Numbered from the stretch's first letter, positions 6,258 through 50,159 are shown. The stretch: 64,000 nucleotides of DNA from Minisyncoccota bacterium (GCA_041674225.1 JBAYWG010000001.1:169401-233400), one strand, 5' to 3'. Translations and numbers: made by a program. Notes: a model not told the origin generated them from the letters alone.

Positions 6258-6938
6258 ATGATAAACCTAGAAGAATTAAACTCCGAATTGGAGGTTTTAC
6301 CACCGACAGACATTGTCCGTCACGCATTCAAAAACTTATTTGGAGACAGGCTTGTAGTAGCGTCTTCTTTTGGTGCTGACTCTGCTGTCATGCTTCACAT
6401 GGCAACACAAATCAATCCTCGGATACGAGTAATAATGATCGATACTGGATATCTTTTTCCGGAGACTCACGAGTATGTAATTACGCTTAAAGAAAGATTA
6501 AAGCTCAATCTGCACGTGTTTTATGGAAAAGAAACTCCCGAGGAGATGGAACGCAACCATGGGCAGCTTTGGGAATATGGTGAGGAAGGATTAAGCCTCT
6601 ACCACTCAATTCGAAAAGTTGAACCACTCAGGAGAGCGATTCAACAATTGAAAGTGAAAGGTATCCTCCATGGAGTCAGAAGAGATCAGACGGAACATCG
6701 TTCAAATTTGAACGTTATTGAAAGAGGATATGATGGAACATTCAAAATTCATCCGATTCTGAAATGGACTTCGCGAGATATTCGCAGCTACAATAAGACT
6801 CACAACCTACCGGAACATCCACTGTTTCTTCAAGGTTACGAATCAATTGGTGACATTCATAGCACAAAACCAGGTGAACGCCGCAGTGATCGAGATCTCG
6901 GAGAGAGTGATGAATGTGGGATAAATTATCAGATTTGA
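6258..6938 (+). CDS. cysH: phosphoadenosine phosphosulfate (PAPS) reductase
   Basis: PP-loop-type VVASSFGADSAVMLHM, then IDTGYLFPETHEY, and a C-terminal SDECGINYQI that matches the ECG(L/I)H-type redox Cys tail of CysH. Confidence 0.8.
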   Translation: MINLEELNSELEVLPPTDIVRHAFKNLFGDRLVVASSFGADSAVMLHMATQINPRIRVIMIDTGYLFPETHEYVITLKERLKLNLHVFYGKETPEEMERNHGQLWEYGEEGLSLYHSIRKVEPLRRAIQQLKVKGILHGVRRDQTEHRSNLNVIERGYDGTFKIHPILKWTSRDIRSYNKTHNLPEHPLFLQGYESIGDIHSTKPGERRSDRDLGESDECGINYQI

Positions 6939-7005: not shown

Positions 7006-7341
7006 TTATTTATCCCCTTTCCCAAACACCATCGAAATCAGAGCAAGCAAAACTCCAAAGAATAAAGCTGACCAAAATCCTGCAACTTCAAATCCAGACA
7101 CAACGTAATCAGTTAGCATCACCATTAATGCAGTGATCACCAATGAGAAAAGTCCCAAGGTCACAATGTTTATCGGCAAAGTTAAAATTGTAATTATAGG
7201 TCTTACAAAAGTGTTAACGATTGCTAAAACTACAGCTACAATAAGTGCGGTAAAGAAACCACCAACAAAAACTCCTGGTAACAAATATGCGGCAATTATC
7301 ACAGCAAGTGCGGACAAAATAAGATTAATTATTATTTTCAT
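7006..7341 (-). CDS. YvlD/phage-holin-4-2 family small membrane protein
   Basis: 111 aa with about four hydrophobic helices. FVRPIITILTLPINIVTLGLF is typical of the DUF360/YvlD family. Confidence 0.7.
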   Translation of the reverse strand: MKIIINLILSALAVIIAAYLLPGVFVGGFFTALIVAVVLAIVNTFVRPIITILTLPINIVTLGLFSLVITALMVMLTDYVVSGFEVAGFWSALFFGVLLALISMVFGKGDK

Positions 7342-7433
7342 ATTGTTTATATTATTGATTAATTAGTTATATATCCATTATAGCAAATTTAAACCATATA
7401 ACTTTTATCTCCAAAATATAATAGAATACAACT

Positions 7434-8294
7434 ATGCAAATAAAACGCCTTCTAAAAATAAGCCGACCGAGATTTTGGATTTATGAAATAGGTCCTTATA
7501 TTGTAGGAATTGCAGCAGCAGCGGGTATAACACTGAACGCGTGGCTTTTAATCCCCGCGATCATATTTTTCTTTTTTTTCACATATCCAGCAAATATTTT
7601 TATCTACGGAATTAATGACATTTTTGATTACGAAACAGATAAATTAAATCCAAAAAAAATATCCTACGAATCTCTTGTAATGCCGGAAGAGTGGCCAAAG
7701 CTTTGGAAAAATATTATTTTGTTTTGTGCGCCTTTTTTAGTCTATGGATTTTTTGTTTTAAATATTCAAAGCTTCATCGCGCTTCTGGCTTTCTTTTTCT
7801 TTGCGGGATTTTATTCATCTACACCGATCCGTGCAAAAGCTCGTCCTTTTTTAGACAGTATTTTTAGTGCAGGACATTATGTTGCTACAGCCGTGTTTTC
7901 ATATTTGATGATTAATTATTTTTTAAATCAAGAAATTACTTGGGTTAATCTCGCGATTGGCACACTTGCAGGAATGTTTTGGGCTATAGCTATGCATGCA
8001 TATTCCGCAGTTCCGGATATTCAAGCAGACAGAGATGCAAAACTAGAAACCATTGCTACAAAGTTAGAAAAAAATAAAACAATAATTTTATGCTCAGTTC
8101 TTTATGCACTTTCTGGAATTCTTGCTTTCAAATTTTTAGGGATAGTCAGCATTATCCTTTCACTTGTTTATGTTGTATTTATGATCAAATCAATCAAAAC
8201 AACAGACGAACAACTTTTCAAAATTTATACTTATTTCCCAAAAATAAATTCTCTTTCAGGAATGATTATTTTCTTTTCAGTTTTACTTAATTAG
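7434..8294 (+). CDS. UbiA-family prenyltransferase, lycopene-elongase-like (CrtEb/LyeJ type)
   Basis: The N-terminal SRPRFWIYEIGPY and the Asp-rich NDIFDYETDKLNPKK are UbiA motifs. The protein is polytopic and its gene converges on crtI with a 4-nt overlap. Confidence 0.6.
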   Translation: MQIKRLLKISRPRFWIYEIGPYIVGIAAAAGITLNAWLLIPAIIFFFFFTYPANIFIYGINDIFDYETDKLNPKKISYESLVMPEEWPKLWKNIILFCAPFLVYGFFVLNIQSFIALLAFFFFAGFYSSTPIRAKARPFLDSIFSAGHYVATAVFSYLMINYFLNQEITWVNLAIGTLAGMFWAIAMHAYSAVPDIQADRDAKLETIATKLEKNKTIILCSVLYALSGILAFKFLGIVSIILSLVYVVFMIKSIKTTDEQLFKIYTYFPKINSLSGMIIFFSVLLN

Positions 8295-9796
8295 ATTTCT
8301 TTTAGTGGTTCTGCGTCTTGTATATTTTCTAATCTTTTATAAACCAACTCTGCAGAAATTAAACAAATAGGCATACCGATTCCTGGATTTGTACCGGCAC
8401 CCACATAATAAAGATTCTTAACCTTCTTGCTAACATTATTCGGTCGAAAAATTGCAGTCTGACTCAATGAGTGTGCAAAACCTAGTGCAGTACCTTTAAA
8501 TGCATTGTAGTCCTTGATGAAGTCTTTTACAGAATAAAGCTTTTTATACACAATTCTATTTTTGAAATCTGGAATATCCATATTTTCTGCCATTTGATTT
8601 ATTACAAACTCAGAATATTCTTCTAGTGATTCATCAGTGTGATCTAAACCAGAAGCAATTGGCACAAGTACAAACAAATTTTCTTTATCAGCTGGCGCTA
8701 CATTTGCATCAGTTTTTGATGGACAACAAACATACAGAGAAGGATCTGTTGGCCATGTAGGTTTTTTAAATATTTGTGAAAAGTTTTCTTCCCAATTTTC
8801 AGCAAACAAAAGATTGTGGTGTTGCAGAGACGGAATTTTTCCTTCTACTCCCATGTACATAATAAATGCAGATGGTGCAAGCAATCGTGATTCCCAATAT
8901 TTTTTACTTTTCTCCCGGTGTGGCTCATCCAAAAGATGCATATCTGTGTGAGCAGTATCTGCATTTGAAATCACAATATCAGCTCGAAATTCTTGTCCGT
9001 TTTCCAATCTCACTCCCACAGCAGTTTTATTTTCAACAATAATTTTATTTACAGGACTGTTTAACAAAATCTCAACTCCGTGTTTTTTGGCAATAGTTTC
9101 CAACGCTTCTATGATTTTATAAATACCTCCTTCTGGATACCAAATTCCCTCCACAAAATCTACATAATTCATCATGCTATAAATCCCCGGCGCATCTCCA
9201 GGAGAAGTTCCAAGCAAAACAGTTTGATATTGCATTACTTTTCTCAGAATTTCGCTTTTGAATTTTTTCTCGATGATAGACTTCACACTTGAGAAGAGCG
9301 GGAGTTTTCTTCCTTCTTTCATTACTCTTTTGTTGAAGAAGTCAAAAATAGTATCGTAGTTTTTAAACATGAATTCATTTTTTGCGATTTCATATTGATA
9401 CTTTGTACTATCCATATATTTTCTCAAAACATCACCAGAACCCGGCTCCAAACTTTCAAAAGTTTCGATTGTTTTTTCTAAATCAGAATAAAAATCATAA
9501 TGTTTCTTTTCGCTTTTTAGAAAAATCCGGTACGAAGGAGAAAGTCTTTTTAATTTTAAATATTGAGTAATATCTTCACCCATCAATTTAAAAAAGTGCT
9601 CAAAAATATCTGGCATCATGTACCAAGACGGCCCCATATCAAAAACAAAACCATCTTCGGAATAGATTCTGGCTCTACCGCCGACTTGATCATTTTTTTC
9701 AATCATCTTCACCTTGTATCCCTTTTTAGCCAACATACAAGCCGTAGAAAGGCCTCCGATACCTGTTCCTATTATGATTACTTCTTTTTGACTCAT
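8291..9796 (-). CDS. crtI: phytoene desaturase
   Basis: EVIIIGTGIGGLSTACMLAKKGYKVKMIEKNDQVGGRA FAD fold, 501 aa, C-terminal YYVGAGTNPGIGMP. Located in the crt cluster. Confidence 0.85.
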   Translation of the reverse strand: MSQKEVIIIGTGIGGLSTACMLAKKGYKVKMIEKNDQVGGRARIYSEDGFVFDMGPSWYMMPDIFEHFFKLMGEDITQYLKLKRLSPSYRIFLKSEKKHYDFYSDLEKTIETFESLEPGSGDVLRKYMDSTKYQYEIAKNEFMFKNYDTIFDFFNKRVMKEGRKLPLFSSVKSIIEKKFKSEILRKVMQYQTVLLGTSPGDAPGIYSMMNYVDFVEGIWYPEGGIYKIIEALETIAKKHGVEILLNSPVNKIIVENKTAVGVRLENGQEFRADIVISNADTAHTDMHLLDEPHREKSKKYWESRLLAPSAFIMYMGVEGKIPSLQHHNLLFAENWEENFSQIFKKPTWPTDPSLYVCCPSKTDANVAPADKENLFVLVPIASGLDHTDESLEEYSEFVINQMAENMDIPDFKNRIVYKKLYSVKDFIKDYNAFKGTALGFAHSLSQTAIFRPNNVSKKVKNLYYVGAGTNPGIGMPICLISAELVYKRLENIQDAEPLKEI

Positions 9797-10701
9797 GATT
9801 TTTTAATTAATGTTAAAAACGCTAACTTAAGTTTTTCTCCAAAACTTAAATGAACTCTGCCAGCGAAAATGTCGTATTTTACAACCTCTATCTTAACAAT
9901 AATTTTTGAATATAAAACTCGTGCTACTTTTATCGCTTTCGCCTCTCTTTTAGGCAACATTTGCAATCCGATATCAGCTTTTTTATAAAGATCTTCAGTT
10001 CTAGCAATTTCAAATTTCATCAAATCAATAAAATTTTGATTTATATTTTTATTAACTAAATCATCTTTTGTCACCCCAAACTTTTGCATTTCATCTTGTG
10101 GAAGATAAACTCTATCTCTTTGTATTACATCTTCATAAATATCGCGCAAAAAATTTGTCATTTGAAATGCTTCGCCAAGCGCTTTTGCATGATCTAGAAT
10201 TTTATTTCTATAATCTAAATCTGTAACAAATCTTTTATCTTTTGAACAAACTATATAAACCATCATATAACCCACTACTACAGCCGAACCATACATATAG
10301 TCTTCCAATTCTTTATAATTTTGATACTCAGTTTTTGAAGTATCTTGAATCATAGCCGAAATAAAATCTTCACTATATTCAAAAGAAATTTTGTATGTGT
10401 CAAAAACATATTTTGTGGCACGTAAAACTTTTAATTCATCTCCTTCGGCAAAATATTCTTCACCGCGATAACACTTACCCCACACCTCCTTCCACTCATT
10501 TAATTTTTCTAAAGCTAAATCTTTTTGATCTTTATATGTAGTATCTATATATTCATCTGGTAAACGAAAAAATGCATACAAAACACAGATCGCATCACGA
10601 TACTCCGCACCCATTAACAAAGTTCCAAAATAAAAACTCTTCCCATATTCTCGATGAACTCCTCTGCAAAACTCTAAATCTAAATTATATTCTGGGTACA
10701 T
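9793..10701 (-). CDS. crtB: phytoene synthase
   Basis: YAFFRLPDEYIDT and LGEAFQMTNFLRDIYEDVIQRDRVYLPQDE are the squalene/phytoene synthase signatures. The gene overlaps crtI by 4 nt. Confidence 0.85.
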   Translation of the reverse strand: MYPEYNLDLEFCRGVHREYGKSFYFGTLLMGAEYRDAICVLYAFFRLPDEYIDTTYKDQKDLALEKLNEWKEVWGKCYRGEEYFAEGDELKVLRATKYVFDTYKISFEYSEDFISAMIQDTSKTEYQNYKELEDYMYGSAVVVGYMMVYIVCSKDKRFVTDLDYRNKILDHAKALGEAFQMTNFLRDIYEDVIQRDRVYLPQDEMQKFGVTKDDLVNKNINQNFIDLMKFEIARTEDLYKKADIGLQMLPKREAKAIKVARVLYSKIIVKIEVVKYDIFAGRVHLSFGEKLKLAFLTLIKKS

Positions 10702-11804
10702 TAAGATTTTCTCTTATCAAGCAATATCACAAAATCAAACCACACGTCTTTGATCATTGGTTTAAGATTTGATTTCAAAATTATTTTGTTGGCTTTATCT
10801 AATTGAGAATGAATTTCCTTTTCAGCATAATCAATTGCGCCTGTTTCTTGAAAAAGTTTTTGCAATACAAGTACTGAATATTCATCAATTTCTTTTCCAA
10901 AAAGTGCTAAGAATATATTTCTATCATTTTCTTTGGCGTTTTCAAAAATATATTGCGTCAAAATTGTGTGTTGACCGTCTTGCACATCCAGCAACCTTTT
11001 CTTTCCTGTTTTTTTAGGATCTCCCACAATATCCAAAAGGTCGTCTTGTATTTGAAAAGCCTGACCCAAGCACAACCCCAATTCCTTATAAAAATCTTTG
11101 TTAATATTTTTTCCAGTCAAATTTGCACCGATCAACATTGGATTAACAAAAGAATAAAAGGCTGTTTTGTATTCATTTTTAAGAAAAATATCTTTCATCT
11201 CTACTTCGTACTGAAGCATAAAAGATACATCTAGTATTTGTCCTGCGACCACTTCCTCAATCATTCTAAAAAATATTTGCTGTACTTTTTTATTATTCAA
11301 ACTAGAAATAACTTCATGCGACCAACTAAAAATTAAATCTCCCGCCAAAATAGCAATGGATTCTGCAATGTGTTTTTTATCGCCTCGAGGATACGATGAA
11401 ATAAATTTTTCTAAATAAACATGCGTCGTGTCTTTGGAATGTCTTTCTACACCTTTATCAATAATATCATCATGAATCAAAGCAAACGCATGAAATAATT
11501 CTAAAGCAATTCCAGCTCGCAAAACTTCTTCTTGGTTCACACCACCTTCTGTAGAGTACGCCAAAAAAGCCATATATGGACGAACTCTTTTTCCACCTTC
11601 ACGTACCAAAGACACAGCATAGTCCACTGCTTCCAAACTTAATTTATTATCAGAAAAGTTTTTATAGTTTAAAACTTTGTCATCCAAATACTCATTTAAA
11701 CGAATATTAAAAATATCTTGAAAAGATTTCAGATCATACGCTTTTACAACAGGAATAAAGTTGATTTTTTCTAAGTGAAGGAAAGAAAGAATGTTTTTAA
11801 TCAT
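10701..11804 (-). CDS. crtE: polyprenyl (geranylgeranyl) diphosphate synthase
   Basis: First Asp-rich motif LIHDDIIDKG and second motif FQIQDDLLDIVGDPKKTGK. The stop and start abut crtB. Confidence 0.8.
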   Translation of the reverse strand: MIKNILSFLHLEKINFIPVVKAYDLKSFQDIFNIRLNEYLDDKVLNYKNFSDNKLSLEAVDYAVSLVREGGKRVRPYMAFLAYSTEGGVNQEEVLRAGIALELFHAFALIHDDIIDKGVERHSKDTTHVYLEKFISSYPRGDKKHIAESIAILAGDLIFSWSHEVISSLNNKKVQQIFFRMIEEVVAGQILDVSFMLQYEVEMKDIFLKNEYKTAFYSFVNPMLIGANLTGKNINKDFYKELGLCLGQAFQIQDDLLDIVGDPKKTGKKRLLDVQDGQHTILTQYIFENAKENDRNIFLALFGKEIDEYSVLVLQKLFQETGAIDYAEKEIHSQLDKANKIILKSNLKPMIKDVWFDFVILLDKRKS

Positions 11805-11824: not shown

Positions 11825-12460
11825 TTATTTATTCCCCGCTAAAGCAACTTTAATTCCAAGCGCGATAAGCACAGCGCCAGTAACTCTTTCTACGTAGTGT
11901 TGTACTTTTCCAATTTTGGTTCGTATAAGTGAGTTTGAGAAAAAGAGAGCAACTAAAACAAACCAAACAAAGGTAATCAGCATCATTTCTATTCCATAAG
12001 CGAACTGAATTATTTTAGGAGTTGAGAGATCAATTATTTGAGTGAACAATGCTAAAAAGAAAAGTGTAGCTTTTGGATTGAGTGCGTTTGTAAGAAATCC
12101 AATTTTAAATGATGACCAAAGACTTATATCTTGCTTTGCGACATTATCTTTTGTTTCAGTGTGCACCGCAGGCTTTGCTCTCAGAGATTTGTACCCGATG
12201 TAAATCAAATATCCCGCACCGATAAATTTAACAATATTAAAAATGATAACTGATTTAGAAATAACAAATCCAATTCCCAAAAGTGAATACGCCACATGCA
12301 CCAAAATTCCCACAGCAATTCCAATCGCTGTGTAAATTCCAGTCTTTCGAGAATAAATAATACTGTTACGAGCAACCATCGCAAAATCTGGACCTGGACT
12401 TACAACAGCCAAAAGATGCACTATTGCTACGGTTATAAACTGCGCAAGAAATATTGTCAT
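11825..12460 (-). CDS. LysE/RhtB-family amino-acid exporter
   Basis: 211 aa with six hydrophobic segments. The N-terminal VSPGPDFAMV motif is typical of the LysE family. Confidence 0.75.
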   Translation of the reverse strand: MTIFLAQFITVAIVHLLAVVSPGPDFAMVARNSIIYSRKTGIYTAIGIAVGILVHVAYSLLGIGFVISKSVIIFNIVKFIGAGYLIYIGYKSLRAKPAVHTETKDNVAKQDISLWSSFKIGFLTNALNPKATLFFLALFTQIIDLSTPKIIQFAYGIEMMLITFVWFVLVALFFSNSLIRTKIGKVQHYVERVTGAVLIALGIKVALAGNK

Positions 12461-12481
12461 TTTTTGATTATAACAGAAATT

Positions 12482-14371
12482 TTACTCCTCCAAACCAAAA
12501 TATCTTGGAAACAATACCGGTGTACTATCCGCCGTTATACCATCTCTTGTAATAGGAAGTTGTTGAGAAGTCGCGGGCCATGGCAGGGGAAGTTTTCCAA
12601 CAAAAGGTTTATCTCCAAAAAGCACATCCGCCACACCTTGCCCTTCACTACCAGGAAGCCACGCCGCCACAAGCGCATCCCAAGAAGAAATTTCGTTCGC
12701 AATAAGCAAAGGTCGTCCTGAAATTATTACTACCAAAACTTTTTCAGAAACTGCTTGAAGTTTTTTGATCGCCATCAAATCTTCAGAATATAAAATTGGA
12801 TATTCTCTATCGCCCACTCCTTCTGCATAAGGTTGCTCACCTACAAATGCAATTCCTAAATCAGCTTTCGTACCATCATCCACAAAATTACCTAGTGTTC
12901 GATAATCCACTCTGGTATTTTCGCTTACAGCATTTTTTATTCCATCTATTATAGAAGTCGCTCCTGGCAAATCATTTCCATTTATTCCTTGCCAATTTAC
13001 AGTCCAGGCTCCTGATTGATTTCCAATATTATTTGCAGCACTTCCAACAATACGAATATGTTTTATATTTTTATCAATTGGTAAAACTGAATTATCATTT
13101 TTTAACAGAACCAAAGATTGCGACACGGCATCTCTTGCAAGCGCACGATGTTCTACTGAACCAACAACTTCAGTTGAAATTTTATTTTCATTTTTATCAA
13201 AAAGACCTAGCTCAAATTTTGCATATAAAATTCTCCGCACAGCATCATCTATTCTGTCTTCGGAAACTTCTCCAACACGCACAGCTTTGGAAACATTTTT
13301 AACAAAAGGTTTGTAATCAAAAGGCAACATCACCATATCTACTCCAGCATTAATAGCCGTAATCACAGATCTATAATCACTCCCAGGAATTTCATAAACA
13401 CCATACCAATCAGAAACAACAAAACCTTTAAATCCAAGTTCTTTTTTTAGGACATCAGTAATCAAATATTCACTCGCAGACAATTTAGTTTCACCCCAAG
13501 TATTCAATCCAATCATTACACTTTTCACACCAGCATCTACAACGGCTCTAAATGGAACTAGATATTCTTCTCTAAGTAATTCTTCGTCAGCCAAAGTAGC
13601 ACCTTGATCTATTTTGTAATTTTCATTTGAAGAAGTGTCCCAAAGCATTCCACCAAGTCCAACAAAATGTTTTGCTGTACCTATCACAGAATTTCCCTGT
13701 AATCCTTTTATATATGCAACACCTAAATCAGATACGAGAGCAGGATCATCAGAAAAAGTTTCGTAAACTCTTCCCCAACGAATGTCGCGAGGCATATCAA
13801 GTGTTGGTGAAAAACTCCAATGCACATTTGTTGCTAAAAGTTCTTTTGCAGTAGCAGATGCAATATCTTCGACAAGCTTTGGATCCCTAGTCGCGCCAAG
13901 TCCAATAGAGTGCGGAAAAACTGTAGCTCCAGGAATATTTGAATGCCCATGAATGGCATCAACTCCATAAATTATCGGAATACCGAGACGACTATTTTTG
14001 GATTCATTTATAAAATCTGAAACCATTTTGTTCCAACCTTCAGGGGTATTATTTTCTGGATTCGCTCCAGCGCCACTTAGAAGTGCACCGAGTCCGTACA
14101 AAGAAACATCTTTCATTTCTTCAACACTTTTATTTTCAACAAGAGCCATCTGTCCAATTTTTTCTTCAAGTGTCATATAAGACAAAAGATCTTCAACACG
14201 TTCTTCTACAGAATTATTTGGATTTAAATACAAAGATTCTTTTGTTGGATTTCGTACAATCTTTGTTTCTTCATTCCGAAATAAAAATGATAAAAAATAA
14301 AAAATTCCCACCAAAATAATTAAAAATAAAAATAAGTACACAAGTTTAGCGTTCACTTTAAAATCATCCAT
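12482..14371 (-). CDS. glycoside hydrolase family 3 (beta-glucosidase / beta-hexosaminidase-like), membrane-anchored
   Basis: N-terminal TM segment, then GIPIIYGVDAIHGH, KHFVGLGG and the GFVVSDW nucleophile motif, plus a C-terminal GH3 domain. Confidence 0.85.
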   Translation of the reverse strand: MDDFKVNAKLVYLFLFLIILVGIFYFLSFLFRNEETKIVRNPTKESLYLNPNNSVEERVEDLLSYMTLEEKIGQMALVENKSVEEMKDVSLYGLGALLSGAGANPENNTPEGWNKMVSDFINESKNSRLGIPIIYGVDAIHGHSNIPGATVFPHSIGLGATRDPKLVEDIASATAKELLATNVHWSFSPTLDMPRDIRWGRVYETFSDDPALVSDLGVAYIKGLQGNSVIGTAKHFVGLGGMLWDTSSNENYKIDQGATLADEELLREEYLVPFRAVVDAGVKSVMIGLNTWGETKLSASEYLITDVLKKELGFKGFVVSDWYGVYEIPGSDYRSVITAINAGVDMVMLPFDYKPFVKNVSKAVRVGEVSEDRIDDAVRRILYAKFELGLFDKNENKISTEVVGSVEHRALARDAVSQSLVLLKNDNSVLPIDKNIKHIRIVGSAANNIGNQSGAWTVNWQGINGNDLPGATSIIDGIKNAVSENTRVDYRTLGNFVDDGTKADLGIAFVGEQPYAEGVGDREYPILYSEDLMAIKKLQAVSEKVLVVIISGRPLLIANEISSWDALVAAWLPGSEGQGVADVLFGDKPFVGKLPLPWPATSQQLPITRDGITADSTPVLFPRYFGLEE

Positions 14372-16497: not shown

Positions 16498-17205
16498 TTA
16501 ACTGAACGACGAACCCACAATCATCATGGGTTGAAGTGAGAATATCAATTCATGCTCGAACTCATCGGTCGGTTCTTTACCTTCCTTAAGTTTCTGCATT
16601 TTCTGATACCATCGGATGAATTGCCACACAGCAAATCCCGAGACCATTTCTGCCGTCGGACCTACTGTGATAGTTGCTCCGCAAGCGGAGACTTCAGCAA
16701 CGTCATCACCATACAGAGTTTTTTCCCATCCCGAAACTTCTACGGGACTTGATGGATTCACTGTATAGATACGACCACTATTGGAACCCATACGAGTCTC
16801 AATAATAACCTCAACGTGAGGTCTGTAACGAAGTGATCCTTTCCAGATTTCTTGTCGTGAAGACATTGTATCTGTCAGCAGGAAAACAATCTGACCGAGA
16901 CGTTGTGTTCCATCAACTCGTTCATTGTGCACCGAAACTTCGGTACCTGTCTGCACGAGAATAATATCTTTCAACGCCTCAACCTTGAGTTGTCCATTGT
17001 GATTGTTACCGAATATTTGGTTTGGGACGTTGTGGGGTTCCACTACATCCGGATCCCAAATGTGAATGTTACGGATACCGAGCTTCGCCAACGAAAGGGC
17101 GATTCTAGATCCTGTAGCACCCACACCTATGATATCGATACGTCTATCACCAAATTCTTGCGGTGAAAACACATCAAGGTGTCTTATTACGTCTAGTTCT
17201 GGCAT
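16498..17205 (-). CDS. ThiF/MoeB-type E1-like adenylyltransferase (minimal, 235 aa)
   Basis: IDIIGVGATGSRIALSLAKLGIRNIHIWDPDVVEPHNVPNQ is the nucleotide-binding motif. EVSACGATITVGPTAEMV is the Cys-bearing segment. A good SD (AAGGAG) lies 5 nt upstream of the ATG. Confidence 0.8.
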   Translation of the reverse strand: MPELDVIRHLDVFSPQEFGDRRIDIIGVGATGSRIALSLAKLGIRNIHIWDPDVVEPHNVPNQIFGNNHNGQLKVEALKDIILVQTGTEVSVHNERVDGTQRLGQIVFLLTDTMSSRQEIWKGSLRYRPHVEVIIETRMGSNSGRIYTVNPSSPVEVSGWEKTLYGDDVAEVSACGATITVGPTAEMVSGFAVWQFIRWYQKMQKLKEGKEPTDEFEHELIFSLQPMMIVGSSFS

Positions 17206-17237
17206 TCTCTCTCCTTCTAGTTTTTATTGGTTATATC

Positions 17238-18023
17238 TTAACGAAACCTTTTCCGGAAAAACCGGGGTTTATATTTTCCTCCAAAACCCTTGAAAAAGGG
17301 TGGTGAATACGGAGCGAACCGCAAAGCAGTAACTTTCCGTTTCATTTCCTCCCGAAGATCATTACGAATTTCATCCAGTTTGTCCCAGTCATCTATGTCT
17401 TCTTCTGTCCATTTCCATGGAACAGAATGAAAAGCGAAACCCTTCTCCCAGTCATAAATTCCGAAATTGATATCTCCTTGACGATTTAAGATACCGCGCA
17501 AGAAAAAATCAGTACCGAAACTTTGAAAGATTTTCATCTGATCATTATCTTGACCAGATGGGTAAGTTCCACCATTTCCATGTGAATGTCCCCAGAAGCG
17601 TATGTTGTTGAAGATTTCGTCACCACCTTCTTTCGAAAGGATTTCCATGACAAATTCTTGAAGAGCTTCTGGAAGAATTTCAGTATGGCCACCGCTCACA
17701 GTCTGAGGAAAGAGGAACACGTCATCGATGATGAAGTCTTCTCCTAGTCGCCGAGCAGTTCCAAGCCACCCCACTTCAATATTGATTGCACCTACAATAA
17801 CGTACATCTTGAAGAGGGCCAATGGACTGACAAATACAGTCGGAATATGGTGTTTCAACGTCAGAACTTCCAGAGTTGTATGGAAAACATCCGACGGAGC
17901 AAAAAATTGTCCGTCTGTCTCTGCGAATTCCCATTGGTAAGGCTGCGGAGGGGTTGGAGTATATGGGCGAGGAGCACCAACAATTTTTGCTGGCAGAGGG
18001 AGTTTAGTATTGTTTTTTTTCAT
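17238..18023 (-). CDS. JAB/MPN (JAMM) metalloprotease
   Basis: E83 lies in NIEVGWLGT, and H146-S-H148-GNGGTYP-S156-GQ-D159 gives a complete E...HxH-x7-S-xx-D JAMM motif (nt 17547-17588). There is a Pro-rich N-terminal extension and a basic C-terminal tail. Confidence 0.85.
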   Translation of the reverse strand: MKKNNTKLPLPAKIVGAPRPYTPTPPQPYQWEFAETDGQFFAPSDVFHTTLEVLTLKHHIPTVFVSPLALFKMYVIVGAINIEVGWLGTARRLGEDFIIDDVFLFPQTVSGGHTEILPEALQEFVMEILSKEGGDEIFNNIRFWGHSHGNGGTYPSGQDNDQMKIFQSFGTDFFLRGILNRQGDINFGIYDWEKGFAFHSVPWKWTEEDIDDWDKLDEIRNDLREEMKRKVTALRFAPYSPPFFKGFGGKYKPRFFRKRFR

Positions 18024-18124
18024 TTAGATTCGATTGTGAAGGTTCTTTTTATACTACTTCTGTAATTCTTTTATTATATTTTAAGGGTTTTGTCAATACC
18101 CCACCCCTTTTTATCTAATATAAA

Positions 18125-18155
18125 AAACCGCTCTCAGAAACTCTGAGAGCGGTTT
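18125..18155 (-). terminator. rho-independent terminator after the E2-like gene
   Basis: Minus strand reads AAACCGCTCTCAG-AGTTT-CTGAGAGCGGTTT followed by TTTTATATT. It separates the E2-like gene from the JAB-E1-Ubl unit. Confidence 0.7.
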
Positions 18156-18167
18156 GACTTAAAGCCA

Positions 18168-19799
18168 TTATTTGATAGCAAGACTGCCATCAAATTCCTT
18201 CAAGAATTCCAGGACCAGCTCGATTACTGTTTCCAGATCGAGTTCTCCAAGAAGTTCCGGCAATGTCGCATGAAGAGGACCTATGGGTAGCCCTCCATCC
18301 CACATTGGGTGCAAATGAGGAATATTAATATCCGGCTCCATTTCGTTACCGATCGGAGAAATACTAACTAATCCTTTCAACACGTTGCACAAAATACGAA
18401 ACGATCCGATGTTGTGAATTTTTTCGGTTGAAATGTCCCTGCTTTTGATAGATCTAGTATCAACAACGAAGACATCATCTCCCTTGAAAAAGACACCCGA
18501 GACTTCCGGCCAGGCACTCACCCTTTGGATACGTTCATTGAACAAATCAGTGGTCACAGCAGCAGGAACCTTTACAAGGTTTTGGATAAAAACGTTTTGC
18601 GCTATCATCATCTGATTGCGACGAATATTATTCATCAACTTTTTCAGTTCATTTTCCTTATCCTGCTTCTGTGCTGCTCGTTCATCTACGAACAGATTAC
18701 GGAAAGCCGAGATCACGACAGGATCTTTAAGCGGTGGCTTTTTTGGATAATCGATACTTTTATCAACAACAGGAAACTTCCTCAAAACAGTGAGGTAATC
18801 TCCGTAATGAATTTCGTTTATCGTTCCAATTGCTTTAATGGCAACAAGGATGGACGCTTCGAACTCATAATCCTTGAGTAAAGGAAGAATAACCTTTCCT
18901 TCCCCCATACAAAATTGATTCGTGTACCGATCCACATGAGGATGACCAAAAGTGTGTCTTTCATACTCAACTCGACGAGTGAGGTTTTTAAACACAGCAG
19001 GTGTTTCTTCACCACCTCCAAAGAGAAGCTTGATCTCAAATTGTCCAAATTCATGAAGAATTTTAGTTCCGGGATCAACAGCATACATGGTCTGTGTGGT
19101 GAAAATGATTCTTCTACCATCCACTCTAATGTTCTGAATCTCAGGAATATTCCAAAGAGTTTGAAGCACCTTATCAGCTTCTTCGTAAGCTTGCTGGTTG
19201 TCATCATTCTTTGATACCAAAGAAGAAGTCAAAACAATATCGTTTTGAATCAGCCGACGATTTTCTGTAAGCTGTTTTTGAAGATCAACATCTTTCTTGG
19301 ACTTAGGAATTTTGAATTTCCCATTCTTGATTTGAACAAGACTAGGCAAATCTCCCCTGATGAGATTCATTGCTTCTGTAAGAATGTGTTTATACACATC
19401 CACGTTCGGCTTATTACAGCAATTGTTAGAAGCATCGTAAAGCAAATACAGATTATTTTTTCCAACGAGTTCTGCAACAGCATAATTGCTTTCAGGATCC
19501 ACAATAACAATCCCTCTACCAGAAGGTTGATATAGAGTACGATTACATGTACGAACTCTTTGTTTCCACAACTCGTCTGGAAGCGTCAATTCGACCTTAT
19601 CACCATCAGCAGTACCGAAGACGTTAAGAAAAAATGTAGTTGAAAAACGACGTACATCTCTTTGTCTTCCTTGACAGTTGTACAGTTGAATTTCATTGAA
19701 CCCCAATATTTCCAATGCATCACCCAAAACATCTCGGGTAGCTGATTCAAAAGAATCCGCAACACGAAAATCCCAATTTGTTTTTTCTATTCTTATCAT
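18168..19799 (-). CDS. large tandem E2/UBC-like protein (HPH...Cys297 module plus a Cys-less UEV-like module, with coiled-coil linkers)
   Basis: Residues ~205-335: WNIPEIQNIRVDGRRIIFTT...FGQFEIKLLF...FGHPHVDRYTNQFCMGEG...ILVAIKAIG. This parallels the UBC order GxFxLxLxF...HPNVxxxGxIC...VLLSIQALL. Residues ~425-540 repeat the module (WPEVSGVFFKGDDVFVVDT...IGSFRIL...IPHLHPMWDGG...VIELVLEFL) but have no Cys. Confidence 0.55.
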   Translation of the reverse strand: MIRIEKTNWDFRVADSFESATRDVLGDALEILGFNEIQLYNCQGRQRDVRRFSTTFFLNVFGTADGDKVELTLPDELWKQRVRTCNRTLYQPSGRGIVIVDPESNYAVAELVGKNNLYLLYDASNNCCNKPNVDVYKHILTEAMNLIRGDLPSLVQIKNGKFKIPKSKKDVDLQKQLTENRRLIQNDIVLTSSLVSKNDDNQQAYEEADKVLQTLWNIPEIQNIRVDGRRIIFTTQTMYAVDPGTKILHEFGQFEIKLLFGGGEETPAVFKNLTRRVEYERHTFGHPHVDRYTNQFCMGEGKVILPLLKDYEFEASILVAIKAIGTINEIHYGDYLTVLRKFPVVDKSIDYPKKPPLKDPVVISAFRNLFVDERAAQKQDKENELKKLMNNIRRNQMMIAQNVFIQNLVKVPAAVTTDLFNERIQRVSAWPEVSGVFFKGDDVFVVDTRSIKSRDISTEKIHNIGSFRILCNVLKGLVSISPIGNEMEPDINIPHLHPMWDGGLPIGPLHATLPELLGELDLETVIELVLEFLKEFDGSLAIK

Positions 19800-19839
19800 T
19801 TTGTACTAGGTATAATTTTAAAACAACTTCTGGCAGAAG

Positions 19840-19866
19840 AATATAACACAAATCAAGACATGTCAA
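19840..19866 (-). promoter_or_regulatory. promoter candidate for the E2-like gene
   Basis: Minus strand reads TTGACA (19866-19861), a 15-nt spacer, then TGT-TATATT (extended -10, hexamer 19845-19840). Confidence 0.45.
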
Positions 19867-19876
19867 TTATTAAAAT

Positions 19877-19906
19877 AAAAAGCCGCCACCCAACCAGGGT
19901 GGCGGC
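19877..19906 (-). terminator. rho-independent terminator after the flavoprotein gene
   Basis: Minus strand reads GCCGCCACCC-TGGTT-GGGTGGCGGC followed by TTTTTATTTT. Confidence 0.75.
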
Positions 19907-19913
19907 ATACACA

Positions 19914-21467
19914 TCAGCGAGCGAGCTGATATTCCGCGCTTCTCATAACAACACCAAACAAAACATCTCCAATCCGATGAAGCATGCCAGGAATGACGAT
20001 GGCATTCGGGTTGTGAGGAGTTTCCAACACAGACCCAAAGCCGTAATAACCAGACAAAATCCGCTTCTTAGGATCAGGACTGTGTTTGACGATAAACTCT
20101 CCATCGTAATCAAACAAAGGACACTTATCTACAGGATCGTAGGTGCAGCCCATGCTTTTCATAACTTCCGGCGAATTACCATACCCAATGAGTGTCATGA
20201 TCTTCCCAAAGGGAATTTTTTCAACCTCAGAGTGCTCTTTACGAAAGACGTAGACTTCCTTTCCAGCAACTTCCCAACGATTGACTCCATAAAGAATTTT
20301 TCCATTGTGAAGCGCACGGTAGTAATCACTACGACTTCTCGCAAGATCTCCCTGAAAATCAACCAGATTAGGAAGGGATACATCCCGAAATAATCTGCGT
20401 GCAACTCCATCAACGACAACAGTCGTGTTTGGATTATAAACACATTCTTCAGGGTAGTGAGTAAGAACACGATAGTCCACAGCCGCACCTCGATCAATCA
20501 GATTATGAATCTGAAAAAGCATCTCTGCCGTTGAATTACCGAGTCCGACGAGGATAATTCTCTTACCCTCAACTTCATCGCGATCAATAACCTTCTGCCA
20601 ACGTGAACCGGCTTGGGCAGTGGTCGCTTCAGTAGTCATGCGACTTGGATCAGAAAGCGGTTTTGGTTTACCGAGACCAATCGTATTAATAACGATTGGA
20701 AAAGTTTCTTTTTTTCCATTAGCGAAATGAAGCACGTGCTTCAACTTACCAGGAACAATCTTGACCACCGTCTCCTTTTTAGAACGGTAAGCTAGATTAT
20801 CTAGGAACCGGCGAACTTCTTCACCATCTCCAGGTGCAGGCCGCAAGATTCTATCAAAGAATTGTAGCTGACGTGGATTATTCCTAGACAGTCCAAAGAC
20901 ATTGTTCTGACTCCAGATACCCAGCGGCTTAGACTTCTCATATATGGTAATGTTATTAAAACCAAGTTGTCTGAGCGCGTAAGTGATAAGAATCCCCGCA
21001 GCCCCATAACCGACAACGGCAATTGGAACTCGAGACAAGGAATTTGGAATAGTAGATTGGCTGACAAAAAAAGTTGCCGCACCCTCTCCTAAAAACTGTT
21101 CCGGACTCCGAAGACCGCTATTGGCAAGAGCCAAATCGATACGACGATTCTGCAAATGTTCACCTCGATATTCAGGAAGATTATCTTCACTGTCGATAAA
21201 AGGAAGTGCTTGGGCATAACCATTAAGAACTCCTCCAACATCACCGACTCGAAGAACCAATTCAGAAAAAAGGTTACCCCAACGTCCTGTGTTTGACATT
21301 TCTTGGACAGCATCAAGACTGAATCCTTTCTCGTCAATCCATCTTCTCAGAACACCCAGCGAAACCTTTTTCATAAAAGAATCTCCTAGGGTCTTGAGCT
21401 TTTCACAAGCAGTCACTAAGTCACGAGGAGTTCTTTTTGAACTCATTCTTTTTGAAGCGGTATTCAT
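19914..21467 (-). CDS. flavoprotein with two dinucleotide-binding folds (class-B monooxygenase / pyridine-nucleotide oxidoreductase-like) and a ~150-aa N-terminal extension
   Basis: IAVVGYGAAGILITYAL is FAD-type GxGxxG and IILVGLGNSTAEML is the second GxGxxA fold. TLIGYGNS is ATG-like. No CxxC redox pair is present. Confidence 0.6.
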   Translation of the reverse strand: MNTASKRMSSKRTPRDLVTACEKLKTLGDSFMKKVSLGVLRRWIDEKGFSLDAVQEMSNTGRWGNLFSELVLRVGDVGGVLNGYAQALPFIDSEDNLPEYRGEHLQNRRIDLALANSGLRSPEQFLGEGAATFFVSQSTIPNSLSRVPIAVVGYGAAGILITYALRQLGFNNITIYEKSKPLGIWSQNNVFGLSRNNPRQLQFFDRILRPAPGDGEEVRRFLDNLAYRSKKETVVKIVPGKLKHVLHFANGKKETFPIVINTIGLGKPKPLSDPSRMTTEATTAQAGSRWQKVIDRDEVEGKRIILVGLGNSTAEMLFQIHNLIDRGAAVDYRVLTHYPEECVYNPNTTVVVDGVARRLFRDVSLPNLVDFQGDLARSRSDYYRALHNGKILYGVNRWEVAGKEVYVFRKEHSEVEKIPFGKIMTLIGYGNSPEVMKSMGCTYDPVDKCPLFDYDGEFIVKHSPDPKKRILSGYYGFGSVLETPHNPNAIVIPGMLHRIGDVLFGVVMRSAEYQLAR

Positions 21468-21535: not shown

Positions 21536-22462
21536 TCAATTTTTTTGGAATTTAATAGTTTGTTCTGTCCAATCAAAATATGGCCAGCTCACAATATTAT
21601 TTCTAGCAAGAATTCTAGGACCCCAATATGATAAGAAGAAAGTTCCAGAGACAATAAGAAGTACAGCAGTAAGGATTACCACACGATTAGTTTTAGCATT
21701 AAGCCATTTTTCAAATCTACCTCCAGTTCCATAGAAAAGAATCAAAAACAATACTGCCATTACAATAATATTTCCAATCCCCTGAAGAACAAAAGCGAGG
21801 CTACCATAAAATGGATTATGAGTTGAGGCCGCGTATTCAAACATTTTTCTAAAAAGTGGAAAGGGACGACCAATTAAAAATGCACCTATAGTTGCACCCA
21901 TGATAAAAGGAGCGGCCCACACATGTTTTGCAAAAAACTTCGAGAATGGATTAGGAATTACTTTAATAGTTCCCAATCCCCAAATAATATAAGTGATTCC
22001 AATCAAGCAGAATACAACAACCGACTGCAAGAGTCGCACTGGCATTCCATTTGAAAGTTGCTCGGTTGAAAGCTGAGGAAGGTTCGAGCCAATCAAAGCA
22101 CCTATCCCGCCATAAAGCGCAGCTACAACAATTAGACCAAGTGACAAAAATCCTAAAGGCTTCAAGACACTTCCAGTTGATCTCTTTCCACTTGAAAGTG
22201 GAGCGATCGCACTAAAAGCACAAATGTTGCAAGCAGTGAAAGTTCCTGCCAAACCTGAAACAAAGGCAAATAATGCACCCATAATTATTCCAGTAATTGG
22301 AGTAGTCTTAGCATCATATCCAAGAAGATTATTAGCTATAGGATCTCCAAGATCACTATCCACAAATGAAGCTGACCAAAATACACTTATAAGAAAACCC
22401 AACAAAACGCTACCTACCACTATTAAAGTTTTTTGTTTTCGGCTTATATTAATTTGTTCCAT
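21536..22462 (-). CDS. polytopic membrane protein, CcdA/DsbD-like, with an intramembrane CxxC
   Basis: 308 aa with about 8 hydrophobic helices. FVSGLAGTFTACNICAFSAIAPL resembles the CcdA first-helix motif (GLLSFLSPCVLPL). Confidence 0.4.
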   Translation of the reverse strand: MEQINISRKQKTLIVVGSVLLGFLISVFWSASFVDSDLGDPIANNLLGYDAKTTPITGIIMGALFAFVSGLAGTFTACNICAFSAIAPLSSGKRSTGSVLKPLGFLSLGLIVVAALYGGIGALIGSNLPQLSTEQLSNGMPVRLLQSVVVFCLIGITYIIWGLGTIKVIPNPFSKFFAKHVWAAPFIMGATIGAFLIGRPFPLFRKMFEYAASTHNPFYGSLAFVLQGIGNIIVMAVLFLILFYGTGGRFEKWLNAKTNRVVILTAVLLIVSGTFFLSYWGPRILARNNIVSWPYFDWTEQTIKFQKN

Positions 22463-29425: not shown

Positions 29426-30382
29426 TTATTGTTCTCGGATGTCAGGGTTCACTAGACATCGAACAGGTCCTCCTGTCACAGAAAATTCTGTTTCTGGATT
29501 TTCACAACGAATTGTATAAGTACCTGGCTCCACGTCCATATCTACAGATGTAGTATTTTCTAATTCCAAACTTTCCAAATCCATAGGTACACTGTTTCTG
29601 TAAAGAATACATGAATCGGCACTATCAACTACCCAACTCAATCCACAAGTTCCACCTTCATTTGCAACACCAGTAGTCAAAGTTAGAGGAGAAGTAAATA
29701 CCGGTGGTGGCAATTCACAAGTGAAACTACTCTGACTACAGAATAATCCTTCAGCGCATTCATCATCCACCATACATTCTCTTATAAAAATCGAACAATA
29801 ACCTGTAGAAACATTGCTAGTGTCTGGATCGGTTATTCTCACACTTGCTGTTTTTGATTCGCCTTTTACAGCATAGTCAACAGGTCCAACATTTTGGTTA
29901 TTTTCTACACCAGTAATCGCAGTTCCTCCCCACAAATAATCAAATGGACCTTCTCCATTTGCTGCACTTGATTTCCAGTAGACATCTTCACCAACATTAA
30001 AAAATGTTTTTGGGACAGTAGCACTTAAAGAAGAATAAGCTGCACATGAAGCTTTGAACTCATCGACTTCTTGTATATGTGAACAAGACGCCATATTTGA
30101 AACCACTTCGCCAGTTCCAACAATCCTTGCTTCTACATTAACCAAATATTCTGTTGTTTCTTCAGGGTCATCATAAACAATATCGTATGCCCCACCATCA
30201 ACAGATCCGGAAGTAACTACTTCATTATCATTATTTTGAGCAAGTACGGTTGAGAAAACATTATTGGCAATTACATAAATTATTATTACAGCAACCACAA
30301 AAAATAATTGTTTAAATTCTTTACTTTCGATTTGCCATTTTTTTAATTTATTTTTTGTCATTTTTTTAAATTGTCTCATCAA
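29426..30382 (-). CDS. secreted/anchored Cys-containing surface protein
   Basis: 318 aa with the N-terminal anchor LFFVVAVIIIYVIANNVFSTVLA. It overlaps the upstream giant gene by 4 nt. Confidence 0.55.
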   Translation of the reverse strand: MMRQFKKMTKNKLKKWQIESKEFKQLFFVVAVIIIYVIANNVFSTVLAQNNDNEVVTSGSVDGGAYDIVYDDPEETTEYLVNVEARIVGTGEVVSNMASCSHIQEVDEFKASCAAYSSLSATVPKTFFNVGEDVYWKSSAANGEGPFDYLWGGTAITGVENNQNVGPVDYAVKGESKTASVRITDPDTSNVSTGYCSIFIRECMVDDECAEGLFCSQSSFTCELPPPVFTSPLTLTTGVANEGGTCGLSWVVDSADSCILYRNSVPMDLESLELENTTSVDMDVEPGTYTIRCENPETEFSVTGGPVRCLVNPDIREQ

Positions 30383-33300
30383 TTATTAGATGGGTAATAA
30401 TGCTCAGGACCATAACAAGGGTACTCCTCACCGTCGTAACTCTCACCAGGAGCGTCATAGGTACAAACACAACTTCCATCATCATAATTATATTTGGGAC
30501 CTGCAATTGAATCAAAATTGTCAGCCCAAGACACACGACATCCTCCACCATAATCACATCCATCGTATGCGCCTGTGTAAGGATTAACATAAGTAGGGTG
30601 TGTAGCCTGGGAGTTATAACTAGGATGAAGTGGGTCTCTACATCCAAAAATAACAGTTGTAGTAGGAGGATAAAATTGACACGCTTCATTCTTTCCATAA
30701 TTAGAAGATGGCCAACCTTGAGCGTTAAACTCTTCTTCACAAGCCGTACAAGGACACATCTCCAAAGAAACCGATTCTGAATCGTAAACAGTTCTAGTTA
30801 CTCCTTGATTAATACGGCTGCTACGTGTCCAACCATCAACAGTAACCGTATCTGAATCTTCAGCATCACTCAAATAACCAGATCTATTAATTGGAGCATC
30901 CCAACTATCACCATGTTTTCTTGTATCAGTTCTGATTCGACTCCCATTAAAATTTGTATTTATAAACCAAAGTTCTCCAGTGTTACAAGGATCCCTTAAA
31001 GATAAGGTTGCACCGATAACTGTGTAGCTTTTTCCATAATATAATCCTCCACACATATCTTTTTCATGTTCATAACAAGCTTGCAAGGTGGTAGCAACAT
31101 TCGTGATAGTAACTGAGGCTGGGGTTGTACATTTTGGTGTTTCAGCTGGCGGTTCAGTTGGAGGAGTATAAATTACACCACCAGAACTAGGACTTCCAGA
31201 TTCAGGCTCAACATCACCAGTCCAAACATATTCTAGTTCTTCTTGTGTATGGTCATCTGAATAGAAATTATCAATATACCAACCCACTCCTGGATTAGCC
31301 GCACAAGAAAGAGTCACAGGATACAAATTTTTTATTCCCACTCTAGATTTTAGAATTTCTCCAGCAGCAACAGGGAAATAACTGTTCCCCGGACTATATT
31401 CTGTATACCAAGCATCATTAAAGAAGTACTCTACACCAGTCTGAATCCAACCAAAACTGTTTGATGGATCTAACTTTGCAATATAATTCCCAAAATCAAC
31501 TGTTTTGAAAAAATAAGGAATATCATCAGGAGAATTACAATCCTGTGGAATCAGACCACCTAAAATACTTTCAGAAAATTGTTTTTGCACAGCACCCAAT
31601 GGAAGTCCTTCAACTCCTATACAATAAGAAGTCGCGTTGTTTGATTTTATATACGGCTCATCACTGTCTTTAAGACCGTCCTCACTGTAATCCAAATAAA
31701 AGCTCGATTGTATTTCAGAATCCAAAGCACACATCATTTGTCTATCGCTTCGACTTACATCTGTAAATTCTAAATTTTGTCTTGAATCTCCTTGTTCAAA
31801 ATCAACTCGACAATAGTCTCCCCCAAAGTCTGCTCTAGCCTCCAAACGATATGTTTGACTCAAGACTCCATTAGTTTCTACTCTTTGTGGATGATCAACA
31901 TCAAAACAAAATTCCTCCACAAATGGGCCAAAGATCCACTCGTTAACGCTAGTACTAGAGGTTGTATTCATATTCCAAGTTTTTGTTTTTGCAGGATCAA
32001 CAGTATCATTATAAAAATCAACAGTTACATCTACAGGTAAATTACCGCACGCTTTACAACTAACCTTCACATAAAATTCAACATCAGAACAACTGTTTTC
32101 ACCAGAACAAAGACCTTGATATCCTTCAGGTTCACCATCTGGAACAGACCAAATATCTATAAGATCTCCATATAGTATTGGTTTTGTTTGATTGCTATTA
32201 CCATCATTACTATCACCAGCGTCTTGGTAATATAGACATGTTCCATCGTTCACATTAGCTTGGTAGTTATAATTAGAAGCACTAGGATCAGTACAACCCC
32301 AATAAGTAATATATTCCTGGGCAGAAGCTAAATTATTTTTTGAATCAATTATAGTTCCTCCAACAAAAAGGAGTGCAATCGCAATACTTACAAGTGTAAA
32401 ATTAGTTTTCTTTTTTAAGAAAGCAAGCAATCCCACAACTACAACCAAGGCAAGCAGACTCCATAAAAGATTTCTAAGTAGATTAGATTTTGGGTATTCA
32501 AATATTTTATTTGGATCCATTGTTACAACTTGAGTATCTAAAATATTTCCATTCTCATCAGATAAAATCAATTCTATTTCATCAATCAAAGTTTTAGATT
32601 TTATTTTTTTGTCACTAAAGTCGACGTCAACGTCTGTTCCTTGAAAAGTCCCATTTAAATCAATCTCTTTTTCAACTTCTTGTATTACTTCACTTTTACT
32701 TTTAAATATTGCTTTTAGTGTAGCTTTTTTTGCCATCGGATCACCTGCCACAATTGTATTCACAATCAAACTAATAGGTTCACCTTTTCTGTACGAATTT
32801 ATATTTGTTTGAGTTTCATAAATTCTTCCAATCAATCCTCTATATAAAAGGCGAACTGATATATTTTCTGAAATTTGTTCCCCTCTAGCATTTTTAAAAG
32901 AAATAAAAGCAGTGTGTGAACCAGATAAAATATTTTCCCAAGGATCTATTTTGAACTCCAAAGCTTCACCGTCTTCTCTTATTAAATCTTCTAAGAGAAT
33001 ATTATTTTCTTCATAAACTATTTTAGCGTTATCCGATATGTGGGAAATTTTTATATCAGAATAAATATCTTCTCTAGCGATAGCATCAAACAATTCTTGA
33101 TTGGTGCTCTCTGGAAACGAAACAATATAGGATTTATCTTTTTCCAAAGTTGGACCCTCCATCAATTGATAAGAATTCTTAGTTTCCACATCCACGAGGG
33201 ACGCTTGTTTGTTAGAAATAAAAGTTCCTCTACCTGTCAGACGTAGAGGTTCTTTTGTATATGTAATTCCGTAATAAGAAAGTTCTTCATTAAAAACAGT

Positions 33301-49559: not shown

Positions 49560-49562
49560 ATC

Positions 49563-50156: not shown

Positions 50157-50159
50157 ATT

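Follow-up and report, generated by a model that had tools for sequence, protein, structure and literature searches.

Among the closest described counterparts of the locus considered here is the bacterioruberin gene cluster of the haloarchaeon Haloarcula japonica, crtI/crtD(c0507)–lyeJ(c0506)–cruF(c0505) (Yang 2015; Yatsunami 2024, PMC11946383), published with the layout crtI/D–lyeJ–cruF; two CrtI/CrtD enzymes of this species are experimentally bifunctional (PMC11946383). In Corynebacterium glutamicum, with the cluster crtE–cg0722–crtBIYeYfEb (PMC3598387), and in an Arthrobacter locus (L054 of our set), crtE, crtB, and crtI are followed by a gene of a UbiA-type elongase. The genes lyeJ, crtD, and cruF have been reported in Candidatus Patescibacteria of Lake Baikal, with adaptation of the membrane to cold as the proposed role; in a closed 724-kb Saccharimonadia genome, lyeJ adjoins crtD, and cruF is far away (Haro-Moreno et al., 2023, PMC9948471). 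Here, we analyze a cluster of four genes at positions 7434–11804 of a 64-kb stretch of DNA from a Minisyncoccota bacterium (the window, i.e., the whole stretch of 64,000 nucleotides). The cluster encodes a UbiA-family prenyltransferase, a CrtI-family desaturase, a phytoene synthase, and a prenyl diphosphate synthase. It is likely to be a native chromosomal carotenoid operon, and the encoded families suggest that an acyclic C45/C50 carotenoid of the bacterioruberin series would most likely be made.

Similar to the haloarchaeal cluster, and to those on the plasmids of Halocatena and Halarchaeum, the window has a LyeJ-type UbiA gene beside a CrtI gene of the same NCBIfam clade, with crtB nearby. 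The differences are a protein identity of 31–45%, the convergent rather than co-directional UbiA gene, the lack of a linked cruF, the presence of a gene similar to geranylgeranyl diphosphate (GGPP) synthases in the operon, and the host, a bacterium with a very small genome. The corynebacterial and Arthrobacter systems share the gene order; however, their CrtEb belongs to NF009608, an NCBIfam model on which the window protein stays below the cut-off, and they involve C50 cyclase subunits and cyclic C50 products, e.g., decaprenoxanthin. With the Baikal Patescibacteria the window shares the superphylum, the gene families, the adjacency of lyeJ to a desaturase gene, and the non-adjacent cruF. That report covers the Saccharimonadia genome and read bins of “Baikalibacteria,” while the window carries the Paceibacterota label, and the two are compared by description; here, the module is seen with crtB and, in about half the loci, with a prenyl diphosphate synthase gene. 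Pigment genes were called unexpected for such an organism in the earlier note, which is overstated, as lyeJ, crtD, and cruF were already reported in Patescibacteria (PMC9948471); other literature searches yielded no further report. Hence, the window is a further lineage with a known kind of system, not a new kind, and what it adds to the earlier report is another lineage, the conservation of the gene arrangement, and the finding that cruF is consistently unlinked.

All four genes are real. The UbiA-family prenyltransferase, LyeJ-type and a candidate lycopene elongase/1,2-hydratase (positions 7434–8294, plus strand, 286 aa), matches PF01040 and NF009516. On the minus strand, the CrtI-family carotenoid desaturase, a phytoene desaturase with a putative 3,4-desaturase role (CrtI/CrtD; 8291–9796, 501 aa), matches TIGR02734; the phytoene synthase CrtB (9793–10701, 302 aa) matches Pfam SQS_PSY; and the short-chain (E)-prenyl diphosphate synthase, probably a GGPP synthase in the role of CrtE (10701–11804, 367 aa), matches Pfam polyprenyl_synt. 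Pfam matches are strong (E-values 4.1e-21 for UbiA, 3.7e-33 for Amino_oxidase in CrtI, 1.4e-62 for SQS_PSY, and 2.1e-46 for polyprenyl_synt), and hence the four open reading frames (ORFs) are far beyond chance. The prenyl synthase and crtB genes meet in TAATG at 10701, with a 1-nt overlap; crtB and crtI share the ATGA overlap at 9793–9796; and the UbiA stop codon TAG (8292–8294) overlaps by 4 nt with the convergent CrtI stop codon TAA (the complement of 8291–8293). These junctions, read directly, agree with the overlapping or abutting crtE, crtB, and crtI and with the convergence on the UbiA gene described in the earlier note, and the peptides that it had pointed out in the UbiA protein, SRPRFWIYEIGPY and NDIFDYETDKLNPKK, are both found in the translation, most of their residues being invariant in an alignment of 31 sequences.

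The UbiA protein scores 75.9 bits against PF01040 (gathering score 34.2; residues 21–255). Its top three matches in NCBIfam, all named merely “prenyltransferase,” are NF009516 (220.7 bits, E 2e-65, above the cut-off of 205), NF009608 (139.6 bits, E 1.1e-40, below the cut-off of 217), and NF010119 (136.6 bits; cut-off 248). The meaning of these unnamed models was derived from reference clusters on annotated plasmids. On the Halocatena and Halarchaeum replicons, the homolog is encoded between crtI and cruF, with crtB nearby, and on NF009516 these two homologs reach 426 and 397 bits; the Arthrobacter cluster has the order prenyl synthase–crtB–crtI, a small ORF, and a fused elongase, which scores 469 bits on NF009608. 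Hence, NF009516 is the LyeJ-type model and NF009608 is the CrtEb-type one. No further CrtEb-type reference was found in the plasmid search, and the matches listed for the Halarchaeum LyeJ are other haloarchaea, with Halobacterium salinarum and Haloarcula japonica not among them. The lycopene-elongase-like character of the UbiA protein, of the C45/C50 type, had been proposed from the sequence; family models, the conserved gene order, gene fusions, and the predicted fold all support it. By profile scores, the protein does not side with quinone, heme, or lipid prenyltransferases, whose models yield E of 1e-5 to 1e-9 vs. 2e-65 for the LyeJ-type model; for homogentisate phytyltransferase, ChlG, MenA, and MqnP, E ranges from 7e-9 to 7e-3. 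The gene arrangement had been likened to pathways with CrtEb and with LyeJ; the enzyme is of the LyeJ type and not of the CrtEb type. By analogy to LyeJ (EC 2.5.1.150), we infer that it adds a C5 unit from dimethylallyl diphosphate (DMAPP) and hydrates the 1,2 bond.

The motifs SRPRFW, YGxNDxxDxxxDxxNPKK, YSxPPxRxKxRPxLDS, and MHxxSAxPDIxxD are common to the window UbiA protein and haloarchaeal LyeJ. Its two Asp-rich motifs, N61-D62-x2-D65-x3-D69 and D195-x3-D199, do not vary across the 31 aligned sequences and align with those of UbiA and MenA of Escherichia coli. The AlphaFold2 model (predicted local distance difference test 92.3, predicted template modelling score 0.90) has about nine long helices, and Foldseek retrieves UbiA-fold structures 4tq3, 7bpu, 6m31, and 4od5 at TM-scores of 0.66–0.72 and E down to 6.5e-7; the predicted all-helical fold with about nine helices, as in ApUbiA/AfUbiA, thus confirms the UbiA fold. 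A sequence search of the PDB retrieved no relative at E ≤ 1e-2 (0.01). In the neighbor-joining tree of UbiA proteins, the window protein falls in a clade with its closest relatives, some of them labelled as members of the Candidate Phyla Radiation (CPR), with 60% bootstrap; haloarchaeal proteins form a separate clade (100%). A further neighbor-joining tree, with 163 UbiA sequences and three outgroups from E. coli (UbiA, MenA, and CyoE), was discarded, as it placed MenA within the ingroup and gave deep nodes bootstrap values close to 0. As the outgroups destabilized the tree, the outgroup question rests on profile scores, and no deep branching order is claimed.

The CrtI protein scores 509 bits on TIGR02734 (crtI_fam; cut-off 238) and is 45% identical to the Halocatena CrtI whose gene adjoins a LyeJ-type gene. 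Each module, the fusion clusters described below included, has one desaturase; given this and the precedent of Ha. japonica (PMC11946383), the CrtI-family enzyme may be bifunctional and act also as a 3,4-desaturase. CrtB matches SQS_PSY (PF00494) at 1.4e-62 over 261 of the 263 profile positions, contains the motifs DEYID and DIYED, and is 33–35% identical to haloarchaeal CrtB. It stays below the equivalog cut-offs of NCBIfam (160.7 vs. 550 for cyanobacterial CrtB, 157.3 vs. 278.6 for HpnD; that of HpnC is also missed), hence its C40 product is suggested by the context. In the prenyl synthase, the first Asp-rich motif is FHAFALIHDDIID (DDIID), with Phe at position −5, Ala at position −4, and no insertion, and the second one is DDLLD. 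Phe at −5 and Ala at −4 without an insertion is the pattern of archaeal-type GGPP synthases under the Ohnuma/Wang chain-length rules. Among solved structures, the best matches carry the name GGPP synthase (3lk5, 1.4e-36; 1wy0, 1.1e-27), and none of the NCBIfam models reaches its equivalog cut-off; the enzyme is probably a GGPP synthase in the CrtE role. Two other routes were considered and rejected: the HpnCDE squalene route, since there is a single SQS_PSY gene and the HpnE score is 43 bits vs. the cut-off of 283, and the C30 CrtM/CrtN route, since the desaturase falls firmly in the C40 CrtI clade.

The arrangement is conserved. In a scan of species-representative genomes with CrtI, crtB–crtI converging on the UbiA gene is found in 12 CPR genomes, a thirteenth contig ending just past crtI, and three more contigs, with lengths of 0.79 and 0.98 Mb in two cases, carry the full order prenyl synthase–crtB–crtI with convergent UbiA. 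All related CPR loci have crtB adjoining crtI; the prenyl synthase gene is upstream of crtB in nine related CPR loci and in about half of the genome loci, hence the core of the module is crtB, crtI, and the elongase gene. In the neighbor-joining tree, CPR CrtI proteins form one clade (99% bootstrap), with the CrtI of a contig with genetic code 25 (L060) as a sister (68%); the relation of this clade to the Bacteroidota and haloarchaeal ones is weakly supported. In related CPR loci, genes of a polyisoprenoid-binding protein similar to YceI, of a TspO/MBR protein, and of a DNA photolyase lie beside the module (L007:6314–6994; L006:4354–4863; L063:14448–15920), and in L063 genes of MsrA/MsrB and thioredoxin are upstream of it; together, these neighbors fit a role in light or oxidative stress or in the membrane.

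The UbiA family is small: when 1.84 billion representative proteins were searched exhaustively with HMMER, 206 representatives were found at E ≤ 1e-30. Two of these are phytoene synthase–UbiA fusions, one adjoining genes of CruF (Caroten_synth), CrtI (Amino_oxidase), and a prenyl synthase, the other those of CruF and CrtI, which ties the family to carotenoids independently of annotation. The former (L060:8001–12934; Logan SRR10018916, a 64-kb contig) has the prenyl synthase, CrtI, CruF, and the fusion; TGA at conserved Gly positions (VVIGSGFGGLS in CrtI) shows that the contig uses genetic code 25, i.e., comes from a CPR bacterium of the Gracilibacteria/SR1 type. In the latter (L061:871–5296; GCA_034432155.1, GC 67%), a fusion of 630 aa directly follows CruF and CrtI. 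Both clusters have the same four enzyme functions as the window; they differ from it in the fusion of crtB to the elongase gene and in the presence of CruF, as the window has separate genes and no CruF. Natural fusions of CrtB with an elongase are seemingly undiscussed in the literature searched.

From these assignments, a pathway can be proposed. The prenyl diphosphate synthase would make GGPP, as suggested by its motif pattern and relatives; CrtB, whose family is clear and whose C40 product is presumed, would join two GGPP molecules into phytoene; and the CrtI-family flavoenzyme would convert phytoene to lycopene. The LyeJ-type UbiA protein would then attach the C5 unit of DMAPP to C-2 and add water across C-1,2 of a lycopene end, chemistry that is taken from LyeJ of Haloarcula japonica, and a 3,4-desaturation by the same CrtI-family enzyme may follow, on the precedent of the pair of bifunctional CrtI/CrtD enzymes in Ha. 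japonica. Repetition of the cycle at the other end would yield bisanhydrobacterioruberin (C50), where the pathway would stop, since no CruF hydratase is linked, unless cruF is elsewhere, in which case bacterioruberin would follow. The pigment might serve in the membrane as a photoprotectant, an antioxidant, and a stiffening “rivet.” More tentatively, and in our estimate somewhat unlikely in this full form, the module might be a vertically inherited minimal C50 pathway of CPR, with one CrtI for the phytoene and 3,4-desaturations, no CruF, and bisanhydrobacterioruberin or a new C45/C50 relative as the product. If so, the pigment would be one of the few self-made membrane components in lipid-scavenging CPR cells, both a membrane-spanning brace and a photoprotectant.

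Several observations weigh against the bacterioruberin-type product. The UbiA protein is 31–32% identical to haloarchaeal LyeJ and exceeds the cut-off of NF009516 by a small margin of 16 bits, and the LyeJ and CrtEb references used here are validated by gene context, not by experiment. The CPR and haloarchaeal UbiA clades are separate in the neighbor-joining trees, with bootstraps of deep nodes below 50%; because of this poor support and the low identity, hydratase activity and the number of C5 additions cannot be read from the sequence. CrtI scores 632.1 bits on NF058655 (“CrtID bifunctional phytoene desaturase/3,4-desaturase”), 8 bits below the cut-off of 640, compared to 554–611 for related CPR copies, about 750 for haloarchaea, and 721 for the flavobacterium Olleya. 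The flavobacterial lineage usually has a separate CrtD; as the model accepts flavobacterial CrtI too, the score is no proof of 3,4-desaturation. Finally, CruF, the C50 carotenoid 2″,3″-hydratase (PF04240, Caroten_synth), was found neither in the 64-kb window nor within 8–10 kb of the module in 16 CPR loci. In the window, the search for it used Pfam, four CruF sequences as tblastn queries, and a CruF profile, which does retrieve its positive controls; in the 16 loci, it used tblastn and the profile. A candidate for a divergent CruF, the ORF with six transmembrane (TM) segments at 21536–22462, was rejected, having no similarity to CruF, and a search of 5.8 billion proteins with CruF of the code 25 contig yielded no CruF on the same long CPR contigs.

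Pfam scans of every window ORF of at least 150 aa and of one free small ORF beside the cluster show no lycopene cyclase, Blh/Brp, rhodopsin, or isoprenoid-precursor genes in the window. The absence of a rhodopsin or carotenoid cleavage gene from the window, stated in the earlier note, thus holds for rhodopsin and Blh/Brp. Its suggestion of a link to retinal and rhodopsin is unsupported, since the LyeJ pathway consumes lycopene and does not make the beta-carotene that retinal requires.

Other products are conceivable. The UbiA enzyme could be CrtEb-like (EC 2.5.1.149), elongating without 1,2-hydration and yielding a flavuxanthin-like C50 carotenoid: CrtEb and LyeJ are sister families, the protein does match the CrtEb-type model at 1.1e-40, and hydratase activity has no known sequence determinant. 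We regard this as improbable, since the LyeJ-type model scores 81 bits more and the CrtEb-type cut-off is failed; none of 160 family representatives is more than 33% identical to Arthrobacter CrtEb, which lacks the SRPRFW motif; and the cluster, directly flanked by the genes of a PF04020 membrane protein and of a LysE-family protein with no free ORFs between, contains no small cyclase genes similar to crtYe/Yf. That the UbiA gene is a convergent, separate transcription unit, and that it is annotated by NCBI only as “prenyltransferase” and by JGI often as “4-hydroxybenzoate polyprenyltransferase,” could also mean that only lycopene or another C40 carotenoid is made, beside an unrelated quinone, heme, or lipid prenyltransferase that happens to adjoin the operon. 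We find this very improbable, as the arrangement is kept in at least 15 loci whose proteins have diverged to 47–68% identity, relatives are fused to phytoene synthase, the MenA, UbiA, and MqnP models give E of 6e-5 or worse, and quinone and heme pathway genes were not found in the 64-kb window. In a further variant, cruF elsewhere on the 476-kb contig or in the genome would complete the route to bacterioruberin. The closed Saccharimonadia genome, where cruF is far from the adjacent lyeJ and crtD (PMC9948471), and the code 25 CPR contig, where CruF is encoded inside the cluster, make this a serious possibility, to which we nonetheless give rather less than an even chance, given the failure to find CruF in the 64 kb of this genome or around the module in the 16 CPR loci.

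As to the origin of the cluster, that it is foreign to a CPR organism, through faulty assembly or binning or through transfer in the very recent past, is scarcely credible, even though the nearest CrtI outside CPR are from haloarchaea and Bacteroidota at 38–45% identity and two metagenome-assembled genomes (MAGs) labelled “Saccharibacteria” have Bacteroidota-like crtI–crtB. The UbiA protein is identical to an NCBI protein (exact match) from a MAG of “Candidatus Paceibacterota bacterium,” where the cluster is inside a contig of 476,459 bp; an identical protein, with the same neighbors, a 3′-phosphoadenosine 5′-phosphosulfate (PAPS) reductase and a PF04020 protein, is encoded on contigs of ENA (242 kb) and Logan (21 kb). 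As the same protein occurs on contigs of three collections, the neighbors being read on those of ENA and Logan, chimeric assembly is unlikely. GC content is 0.324 in the cluster and 0.355 in the window, and at third codon positions the four cluster genes have 0.20–0.28 vs. 0.249 ± 0.042 in 12 other window genes, housekeeping genes included in this agreement; hence, the composition is native, and the AT-rich native character ascribed to the cluster at first sight is borne out. A transfer so recent is also at odds with the single CPR clade of CrtI. The rest of the window has typical CPR content (type IV pilins with a prepilin peptidase, SecA, an NAD-dependent ligase, GatA, a Y-family polymerase, and release factor 2). 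The host is Candidatus Paceibacterota (CPR/Patescibacteria), and the operon is chromosomal.

In the prevailing view, CPR bacteria make almost no lipids and cofactors of their own, hence a conserved, complete pigment pathway would be a rare autonomous membrane-related capacity. It also points to life in light-exposed or oxidizing water, and not solely in dark niches sheltered by a host. With its three to four genes, the compact module, along with the natural fusions of phytoene synthase with the elongase in relatives, might provide a small toolkit for the engineering of C50 carotenoids.

Around the cluster, an AT-rich spacer of 92 bp (7342–7433) separates the UbiA gene from the divergent gene of a PF04020 membrane protein (7006–7341, minus strand; 111 aa, four TM segments, “phage holin 4_2”) and presumably holds the UbiA promoter; a scan of the region for promoters and terminators yields sites no more numerous than in shuffled sequence. 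The adjacency of PF04020 and UbiA genes is also seen in locus L011, and PF04020 is present in three of 16 loci; a functional link to UbiA may exist. Next to it, at 6258–6938 (plus strand), is the gene of the PAPS reductase CysH (NF002537, 223.8 bits, above the cut-off), an assimilatory sulfate-reduction gene unusual in an organism with such reduced metabolism. On the other side, genes of a LysE/RhtB-family exporter and a family 3 glycoside hydrolase (GH3; 11825–14371, minus strand) lie 20–21 bp upstream of the carotenoid operon on the same strand and may be co-transcribed with it; in none of the other loci does a LysE/RhtB or GH3 gene adjoin the module.

The “Candidatus Saccharibacteria” MAGs mentioned above (L026 and L033) have crtI–crtB in the Bacteroidota gene order, and their CrtI proteins branch within the Bacteroidota clade (bootstrap 87%); the pair, which is unrelated to the Paceibacteria-type module, was either mis-binned or acquired in a transfer of its own.

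Elsewhere in the window, the region 16498–21467 (minus strand) encodes a ThiF/E1-like protein that matches (7.9e-15) “E1-E2” models of CBASS defence in their E1 portion; beside it are an ORF with weak similarity to JAB and two large ORFs that match no family. The region may be a ubiquitin-like conjugation or defence module. No match in Pfam or PADLOC is seen for the ORFs at 30379–33711 (1110 aa, with a signal-like N-terminus), 18168–19799 (543 aa), and 21536–22462 (308 aa, the six TM segments being predicted), all on the minus strand. At 48954–52330 (minus strand), the prepilin peptidase gene is accompanied by four pilin-like genes, of which three encode an N-terminal methylation motif, and an ATPase similar to coupling proteins of type IV secretion is encoded at 62091–63932 (minus strand); both are typical surface and DNA-uptake machinery of CPR.

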